A stretch of DNA of 64,000 nt. It comes from a virus. Shown here one piece after another: positions 47,814 through 48,191 of this stretch. The stretch covers positions 32,739 through 96,738 of IMG/VR virus record IMGVR_UViG_3300028028_000001. One strand, 5' to 3'. Both the position numbers and the translations under genes were made by a program. The notes under the pieces were generated by a model. That model was not told the DNA's origin and searched no databases. It saw only the letters and a list, made by a program, of their open reading frames with translations. How positions within the stretch are numbered: position 1 is the first letter of the stretch; every line of letters starts with the position of its first letter.

Positions 47814-48191
47814 CTACTCCTTCACGATCGCACCGGATTCCCGGAGCATCCGGGCGGCGGCGGCGAGGGTGACCGTGGAACCGCTCCGATCGCATCGCAG
47901 TTCCGACTGCCCGATGGTGGTTGGCGCGGCTTCGACGAGGTTCTTGGCCTCCATGAGACCGATGCCGGTCAACTCGCGGATCGCCTTGATGACGTTGATC
48001 TTGTTCTCGCCCCATGAGACGAGGAGGATCGCGTCGCCGGGAATGGGCACGTCCATCTTGGAGAGAGTCGCGGTCTTCTCTGCGATGGCGCCGCGGAGTA
48101 TCTCCGCTCGCGTCAACGCATCGCGGCCGATCCGCTCCAGTTCCTCCGCTCTCGCGCGGAGTACTTCGATTTCCTGTTTCAATCGTTCCAT
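47814..48191 (-). CDS. ribosomal protein bL12 (L7/L12) C-terminal-domain homologue with unrelated coiled-coil N-terminus
   Basis: [36 protein letters not shown]...[10 protein letters not shown] aligns by eye with bL12 CTD ([27 protein letters not shown]...LEEAGAEVEVK). Confidence 0.75.
   Translation of the reverse strand: [125 protein letters not shown]

Follow-up and report, generated by a model that had tools for sequence, protein, structure and literature searches.

A phage-encoded protein joining an N-terminal heptad helix to a complete bL12 C-terminal domain

We analysed a 64,000-nucleotide stretch of viral DNA (IMG/VR record IMGVR_UViG_3300028028_000001, positions 32,739 to 96,738; hereafter the window) and found that a gene on its minus strand (47814..48191) encodes a 125-amino-acid (aa) protein ending in the C-terminal domain (CTD) of ribosomal protein bL12. 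The gene is complete, running from an ATG at 48191-48189 to a TAG at 47816-47814. Its product, referred to here as the target, almost certainly belongs to a divergent tailed phage rather than being an orthologue of rplL, the cellular bL12 gene; its gene lies in a replication and nucleotide-metabolism block, and the protein is composed of a 44-residue heptad helix, a 7-residue proline linker and a complete bL12 CTD. An earlier prediction, made from the DNA letters alone (the original prediction), had proposed such a protein; its coordinates and quoted protein letters both match the ATG-to-TAG frame, to which the strand is added here.

The C-terminal half is a complete bL12 C-terminal domain

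The bL12 CTD occupies residues 54-125 of the target (47817..48032, minus strand). Ribosomal_L12 (PF00542) was the sole Pfam family found in the protein, with E=9.6e-15 and 55.1 bits against a gathering cutoff of 25.9, and the local HMMER alignment to this family spans residues 55-95 only. Using hhalign, we compared residues 54-125, as a profile of three family members, with 39 cellular bL12 CTDs, and obtained a probability of 99.6% (E=1.2e-23, 62 columns) covering the whole domain. The original prediction had placed the CTD at residues ~52-125 by eye and had called for a profile comparison with bL12; that comparison was significant over the whole CTD, with the domain at 54-125. A phmmer search against PDB chains returned bL12 proteins of many species as all of its best 17 matches, with 8rdw_D at the top (1.4e-10), and the core motif was 65-79% identical to that of cellular bL12.

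The domain was also recovered by structure modelling. A first AlphaFold2 (AF2) run with 3 sequences gave one confident model out of five, with a predicted local distance difference test score (pLDDT) of 87, and in a second run with 40 sequences all five models reached pLDDT 87-92. Both runs showed the same topology, namely a helix at 2-45, a linker at 46-53 and a beta-alpha-alpha-beta-alpha-beta domain, in which beta1 covers residues 54-59, alpha4 64-75, alpha5 79-87, beta2 91-94, alpha6 109-118 and beta3 122-124. When the model was searched with Foldseek, the top PDB matches were bL12 CTDs (1ctf, 8yeq and 8phj_W; probability 1.00), with target-normalised TM-scores of up to 0.86. Both hhalign and the alignment revealed a 7-residue insertion relative to cellular bL12, located ahead of the last helix within the divergent beta2-alpha6 loop (residues 95-108; 47868..47909, minus strand), which is the lowest-confidence part of the model. 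This loop is shorter in the relative P0003, and a similar insertion is present in P0258, a distant single-CTD protein; both are described below. These results confirm that the target carries a genuine, complete bL12 CTD with its factor-binding helices intact.

The N-terminal half is a heptad helix unrelated to the bL12 N-terminal domain

Residues 1-46 (48054..48191, minus strand) form a long amphipathic helix, as judged from AF2, heptad scoring, hhalign and the ratio of nonsynonymous to synonymous substitution rates (dN/dS). Both AF2 runs modelled it as one continuous 44-residue helix spanning residues 2-45. Its heptad register is unbroken from M1 to M46, with M1, I8, A15, G22, A29, I36 and L43 at the a positions and L4, L11, L18, A25, L32, K39 and M46 at the d positions, and this register scored 11.5 compared with at most 7.0 for the other registers.

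We searched this region for the N-terminal domain (NTD) of bL12. PF16320, the bL12 NTD family, did not match the target even at E<=10, and hhalign of residues 1-53 against 39 bL12 NTDs gave a probability of 0.1%. The AF2 helix stayed single, with no NTD helical hairpin, with 36 canonical, NTD-bearing bL12 sequences in the alignment. A diverged bL12 NTD was considered because the two N-termini shared alignment columns in MAFFT, and it was rejected on the hhalign probability and the absence of an NTD fold from the AF2 models. The N-terminus is thus unrelated to the bL10-binding dimerisation domain, as originally predicted. The earlier label of a coiled coil is also a fair description of a single helix with one uninterrupted heptad register, because an amphipathic helix this long needs to be buried, either in an oligomer or against a partner. 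From its sequence, we infer that residues 1-46 may serve as a coiled-coil oligomerisation or partner-binding element.

The helix is followed by a proline-containing linker, residues 47-53 (DVPIPGD; 48033..48053, minus strand), which was delimited by alignment and AF2 and is mostly invariant in the three family members, position 52 being G, D or P. Cellular bL12 has a hinge of ~20 residues rich in Ala and Gly in its place. Scored against the NCBIfam rplL equivalog TIGR00855, the target reached 48.0 bits, below the cutoff of 84.4, compared with 147.5 for a canonical control (P0021).

The gene belongs to a phage genome

The window is phage throughout its 64 kb. It encodes a Baseplate_J protein, a LysM protein, a tail protein with lysin activity (phrog_1015), a virion structural protein (phrog_1004), a phage-type sliding clamp (phrog_947) and a RecU-like resolvase, together with DUF5131 and its radical-SAM partner, ThyX, a C5-methylase and two helicases. 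A further window protein of 555 aa (phrog_1735) has homologues in 526 phage records. The target gene lies in a co-directional, tightly packed series in the order clamp, ThyX, methylase, helicase, 82-aa open reading frame (ORF), target, 115-aa ORF and helix-turn-helix (HTH) gene.

An identical protein is public at NCBI (P0001), on a 96.7-kb contig, under the name 'MAG: ribosomal protein L7/L12 [Thermoleophilia bacterium]'. Given the phage genes across the window, this indicates that a phage or prophage contig was binned into an actinobacterial metagenome-assembled genome (MAG) and that the protein was misnamed as ribosomal. We flag this mis-annotation of a phage protein as a Thermoleophilia ribosomal protein L7/L12. 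The reading behind the name, that the gene is the true cellular rplL of that MAG, is refuted and retains practically no probability: apart from the NCBI name of P0001, which speaks for it, the protein scores below the equivalog cutoff and has no NTD, and the gene lies away from rplJ and rpoB in a window filled with phage genes.

The factor-binding face is conserved under purifying selection

Helices 4 and 5 of bL12 are a common binding site for IF2, EF-Tu, EF-G and RF3 (PMC6753160, PMC10931766, PMC12548414), and the roles of the bL12 NTD and CTD are described in PMC12548414. The corresponding alpha4-turn-alpha5 face of the target spans residues 61-90 (47922..48011, minus strand), as located from the alignment invariants and residue mapping. 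We found that every alpha4/alpha5 residue that does not vary among cellular bL12 proteins is kept in the target. In E. coli numbering, K65, I69, K70, R73, L80, E82 and K84 are identical in the target, and V66 is replaced by Ile. Two further substitutions, K81 to Met and D85 to Asn, occur in the target alone, and its relatives have R or K and D at these positions. Conservation thus peaks on the factor-binding face, and divergence is found on the opposite side, in the loop and alpha6.

Selection was assessed by Nei-Gojobori dN/dS in the three pairwise comparisons of the family. The overall ratio was 0.26-0.29, with 0.14-0.21 for the N-terminal helix and 0.29-0.42 for the CTD, indicating that both halves are functional and under purifying selection.

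The subfamily is rare and changes its neighbours

In the collections searched, the full-length subfamily comprised three distinct sequences, the target, P0002 and P0003, and a word search of 5.8 billion proteins likewise returned three subfamily sequences. P0002 is 77% identical to the target and was found on two JGI metagenome contigs, which were the sole JGI matches. P0003 (L002 681-1208) is 73% identical and carries an extra 55-aa N-terminal domain (MDRLHIIFDGPPSHESGRFVEVEND...) before the coiled coil; this extension has its own AAAGGAG Shine-Dalgarno sequence 5 nt upstream and is not matched anywhere in the window. Additions at the N-terminus are thus tolerated by the architecture. No relatives of the subfamily were found in IMG/VR viral contigs or in GTDB genomes, and a HMMER search of 1.84 billion representative proteins yielded no more full-length relatives among the 150 best of its 7,737 matches. 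A tblastn search of 50,697 phage records gave CTD-core matches only, with no close subfamily member, and these matches probably stem from cellular rplL genes present in records that are contaminated or include a prophage.

A comparison of the three gene neighbourhoods revealed no partner gene conserved among them. The P0002 contig comes from a related phage, as its AAA_23 protein is 67% identical to the product of the window ORF 62637-63959. Its gene order differs from that of the window, and the window's 115-aa gene is absent there. The contigs of the two relatives share the gene upstream of the bL12-like gene (L001 1-936 and L002 1-282; 95.6% identical), which is absent from the window, showing that the bL12-like gene has moved relative to its neighbours between related phages. 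The product of this shared gene has a cysteine motif, CWGCPYLAHC, which we read as a putative Cas4-like PD-(D/E)XK nuclease signature. The retention of the bL12-like gene in a related phage with different neighbours indicates that it is a self-contained unit, and three subfamily loci are too few for guilt-by-association.

The distant protein P0258 (L004 5725-6126) has 133 aa and a single CTD, and is encoded on a contig of small genes without family annotation. It has the CTD subtype of the target (HWG, the loop insertion and LAEAAKMLREAGA) joined to an unrelated N-terminus, which suggests a wider clade of single-CTD proteins whose N-termini may be swappable.

bL12 CTD repeats occur outside the ribosome in bacteria

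The same HMMER search, made with the family profile, provided a wider view of the domain. Among the best 148 non-self matches out of the 7,737 (P0121-P0268), 147 had 2-8 tandem bL12 CTDs and only 5 had a canonical NTD. A Pfam scan of 74 of them showed fusions to TIR_2 (7 proteins), TIR (3), DUF6793 (3), protein kinase (2) and LRV/HEAT (2), and fusions found in one protein each, including KAP NTPase, PNP_UDP_1, pentapeptide repeats and FGE-sulfatase. These findings indicate that bL12-CTD repeats are a widespread non-ribosomal module in bacteria.

Six proteins (P0167, P0227, P0237, P0241, P0248 and P0253) combine an N-terminal TIR domain with 2-3 CTDs, and the TIR parts of such proteins weakly resemble ThsB and SAVED-TIR models. 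The P0241 gene (L010 6001-7209) adjoins a second TIR gene (TIR_2, L010 5189-5983), an SLFN/AlbA-HTH gene and a transglutaminase-kinase gene. L12/ClpS-domain insertions have been reported in vWA-MoxR conflict systems (Kaur et al. 2020, PMC7159879), and that mention was the only one returned by our literature search, which found no description of TIR/bL12-CTD fusions. A different arrangement was seen in P0125, a 510-aa protein with 4 bL12 CTD repeats between an N-terminal hydrophobic signal- or transmembrane-like segment and a PEP-CTERM-like anchor (VPVPP...hydrophobic...RRAGN). P0149 is similarly built. Judging by these segments, P0125 is apparently exported.

Coding evidence and neighbouring genes

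Within the 125-aa frame, the GC content at codon positions 1, 2 and 3 was 0.63, 0.45 and 0.81 in a window of 60% GC, which is the codon-position pattern of a real gene. A strong Shine-Dalgarno sequence, AGGAAAGGAAG (48198..48208, minus strand), was read 6 nt upstream of the target ATG. Two overlapping ORFs were considered and rejected as genes. The 244-aa mechanical ORF at 47464..48198 (minus strand) consists of ~130 codons that read the bL12-like gene out of frame, followed by the real 115-aa gene. For the 195-aa antisense ORF at 47689..48276 (plus strand), both the family match and the GC3 of 0.81 belong to the 125-aa frame only.

The downstream 115-aa gene (47464..47811, minus strand) starts with an ATG 2 nt past the target stop, and its GAAGGAG ribosome-binding site sits within the final codons of the target. 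On the basis of this arrangement, the two genes are probably translationally coupled. The sequence of the 115-aa product suggests a beta-rich N-terminal half followed by a long predicted C-terminal helix. This gene had no match in Pfam, PHROGs, PADLOC or NCBIfam, and the upstream 82-aa ORF had none in PHROGs, PADLOC or NCBIfam. In PADLOC-DB v2, neither the target nor its two neighbour genes gave a match.

Other features of the window were also recorded. Only one other translation-related gene was found in the window, a tRNA-Ala(TGC) gene at 43465-43536 (minus strand) that separates the early-gene block from the downstream region. At 43963-45767 (minus strand), the DUF5131 gene (phage Gp37/Gp68-type) overlaps the start of the radical-SAM gene in what looks like a conserved two-gene pairing, and a segment of the P0258 contig (L004) matches the C-terminal part of the radical-SAM protein at 55% identity. 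The ORF at 9137-14839 (plus strand), upstream of the structural genes, encodes 1,900 aa, an unusually big protein for a phage of such size; a SNF2/DEAD-type helicase module is confined to its last ~560 residues, and the first ~1,300 residues are without a Pfam match.

Known viral proteins with a bL12 domain

Virus-encoded bL12-domain proteins were described by Mizuno et al. (2019, Nat Commun 10:752, PMC6375957), with examples from Ralstonia phage RSB3 (98 aa), Dinoroseobacter phage DFL12phi1 (106 aa) and Salmonella phage FSL SP-076 (418 aa). According to that study, viral bL12 domains keep the EF-interacting residues, have been acquired repeatedly and are under purifying selection; they sometimes span a small protein and more often lie inside larger unrelated polypeptides. 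The 418-aa protein was detected by mass spectrometry in purified E. coli 70S ribosomes through a single peptide, and its tagged form failed to affinity-purify ribosomes; the authors suggest that viral ribosomal proteins replace cellular ones (PMC6375957). Streptomyces BE1 phages have two adjacent genes annotated 'ribosomal protein L7/L12 C-terminus domain' (PMC12509530), and N4-like roseophages also carry a bL12-domain gene. BFVD contains many viral 'bL12 C-terminal domain-containing' proteins, some of 125-133 aa with an alignment to the model that extends beyond the CTD, and several PHROGs families of unknown function match the CTD.

Discussion

The reading we tentatively prefer is that the target may act as a soluble oligomeric mimic of the stalk head, competing for proteins that recognise the bL12 CTD. 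A lone amphipathic helix of 65 Angstrom would be unstable by itself, so the N-terminal helix is expected to form a homo-oligomeric coiled coil that would present at least two bL12 heads on a rigid stalk, resembling a bL12 dimer detached from the ribosome. As the bL10-binding NTD is absent, the protein should stay off the ribosomal stalk. With the alpha4/alpha5 face intact, proteins that bind the CTD should continue to recognise these heads, candidates being IF2, EF-G, EF-Tu, RF3 and other stalk-binding proteins. Such a multivalent soluble competitor could modulate host translation or stalk-dependent processes during infection. The earlier suggestion that the protein sequesters or redirects translational GTPases is a reasonable inference along the same line.

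Several observations weigh against this proposal. The bL12 CTD binds its factors weakly and transiently, and the cell contains EF-Tu in very large amounts, which makes simple sequestration of EF-Tu implausible and leaves only lower-abundance ligands as realistic targets. The CTD is near-neutral rather than acidic, with an isoelectric point of 8.2 in P0001 and 6.9 in P0002 compared with 5.1 for the E. coli CTD, and it contains the 7-residue insertion. Furthermore, the same alpha4/alpha5 positions were 71-94% conserved in 445 non-ribosomal CTD repeats, among them copies from TIR fusions and from an apparently exported protein; this is an upper estimate, since these repeats were chosen by similarity to the query profile. 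The face is thus selected outside the ribosome as well, and its conservation in the target is by itself no proof of GTPase binding. The residues may be partly structural or serve another ligand, and the sequence argument for GTPase sequestration is less specific than it appears. An apparently exported protein such as P0125 argues against the binding of cytosolic GTPases by every CTD copy. Finally, the presence of a viral bL12-domain protein in 70S fractions (PMC6375957) indicates that a protein lacking a canonical NTD can associate with ribosomes.

The helix could instead pair with another phage or host protein, so that the CTD would tether this partner to the ribosome's GTPase-associated centre or to a translational GTPase, or would draw the GTPase to the partner. 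This is rather unlikely in our judgement. In its favour, the wider class combines a constant CTD with variable N-termini: P0258 joins the CTD subtype of the target to an N-terminus of different origin, P0003 has its additional 55-aa domain with its own Shine-Dalgarno sequence, and bL12 domains are found within unrelated larger phage proteins, one of them in 70S fractions (PMC6375957). The 115-aa protein, whose gene is probably coupled to that of the target and which ends in a long predicted helix, would be a candidate partner. However, no neighbour gene is conserved, the genes on both sides differ between the window and the contigs of the relatives, and the regular heptad core fits a homo-oligomer equally well. 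The usual interpretation of viral bL12 in the literature is that it joins the host ribosome in place of bL12, which for the target would require a non-canonical contact, for example with bL10 helix alpha8 or host bL12 NTDs, and would shift factor recruitment toward phage translation. The finding of a viral bL12-domain protein in purified 70S, the replacement suggested on that basis (PMC6375957) and the same reading in the roseophage paper support it, as do the length of the target, which is about that of bL12, and its helix-linker-CTD order. We consider it unlikely for the target, which has no NTD homology (hhalign 0.1%, no PF16320) and no NTD helical hairpin in AF2 despite the canonical sequences in the alignment, and in which a 7-residue proline linker replaces the flexible hinge that was reported as needed for bL12 activity by a reference cited in PMC6753160. 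The ribosomal evidence of Mizuno et al. itself consists of one peptide, and the tagged protein was unable to affinity-purify ribosomes (PMC6375957).

Two further explanations were weighed. The bL12/ClpS-like fold might be a small, stable protein-protein or multimerisation domain, for instance within the replication module, with no link to translation. The gene does lie among helicase, clamp, methylase, ThyX and HTH genes and not among translation genes, bacterial CTD repeats have partners as diverse as LRV/HEAT, pentapeptide repeats, FGE-sulfatase and an apparently exported protein, and Kaur et al. call the domain 'multimerizing' (PMC7159879). A general-purpose domain of this kind is nevertheless quite unlikely in view of the 65-79% identity of the core motif to cellular bL12 and of a conservation that is not even but strongest on the factor-binding face, divergence being confined to the loop and alpha6 on the opposite side. 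Free bL12 heads, multimerised by the coiled coil, might also serve as an anti-defence decoy, titrating immune proteins that dock on or monitor the stalk head, such as ribosome-dependent RNases of the type of the CARF-RelE effector Cami1, or the TIR, KAP and kinase proteins with CTD repeats. The case is circumstantial, and we regard it as improbable. Cami1 is a common type III CRISPR effector, and a solved structure, 8phj, has it on the 70S ribosome with bL12; the bL12 chain of that structure (chain W) is the best structural match to our model. Fusions of TIR to 2-3 bL12 CTDs exist in bacteria (six individually, and TIR_2 in 7 of the 74 scanned), one such gene adjoins second TIR, SLFN/AlbA-HTH and transglutaminase-kinase genes, and L12/ClpS-domain insertions occur in vWA-MoxR conflict systems (PMC7159879). 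Against this, the target had no PADLOC match, and no known anti-defence genes were identified adjoining it.

If the stalk-head mimic is borne out, the target would offer a compact reagent of natural origin, a stalk head that is soluble, multivalent and free of a ribosome anchor, with which the effect of titrating stalk-head ligands could be probed in vivo. It would also give a first entry point to the mechanism of phage bL12-domain proteins, a class described in 2019. The fusions of CTD repeats to TIR and other defence-type domains are a side lead that may be more useful than the target itself; if the decoy explanation were true, the fusions of CTD repeats to effectors would constitute an uncharacterised class of immune sensors built on a mimic of the ribosomal stalk.

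Comparison with known systems

The target resembles cellular bL12 in its CTD fold and alpha4/alpha5 motif, its length of ~125 aa and its order of helical N-terminus, linker and CTD. It differs in having no NTD or bL10-binding domain and no Ala/Gly hinge, in scoring below the equivalog cutoff and in being near-neutral. The cellular gene lies in the rplJ-rplL(-rpoBC) operon, whereas that of the target lies between the phage helicase and 82-aa ORF on one side and the 115-aa ORF and HTH gene on the other. ClpS, the N-end-rule adaptor of ClpAP, has the same alpha/beta fold as the target CTD, but in Foldseek it reached a probability of only 0.2-0.5 with E>0.3, compared with 1e-4 for bL12; the target has no ClpS Pfam match and contains the bL12-specific motif.

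Like the target, the bacterial multi-CTD proteins use the CTD off the ribosome, without an NTD and with alpha4/alpha5 conserved. Unlike it, they are encoded by cells, generally carry several CTDs in tandem and in many cases include an enzymatic effector domain. With its single CTD, the target would owe any multivalency to the coiled coil.

The rarity and novelty implied by the original prediction were overstated, since the class was described by Mizuno et al. in 2019, is routine in BE1 phages and has many BFVD entries. Phage proteins with a bL12 CTD but no ribosomal NTD are an established category, to which the target adds one rare subfamily. It shares with the Mizuno class its phage origin, a significant PF00542 match, conserved EF-interacting residues, purifying selection and a location outside the canonical ribosomal context, with flanking sequence unrelated to bL12. 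Unlike that class, it has its own 46-residue heptad helix, 7-residue proline linker and 7-residue CTD insertion, and it showed no close sequence similarity to the cultured-phage examples by tblastn. The particular features here are a heptad helix at the N-terminus, a short linker and an insertion in the CTD, and the subfamily that carries them is rare.

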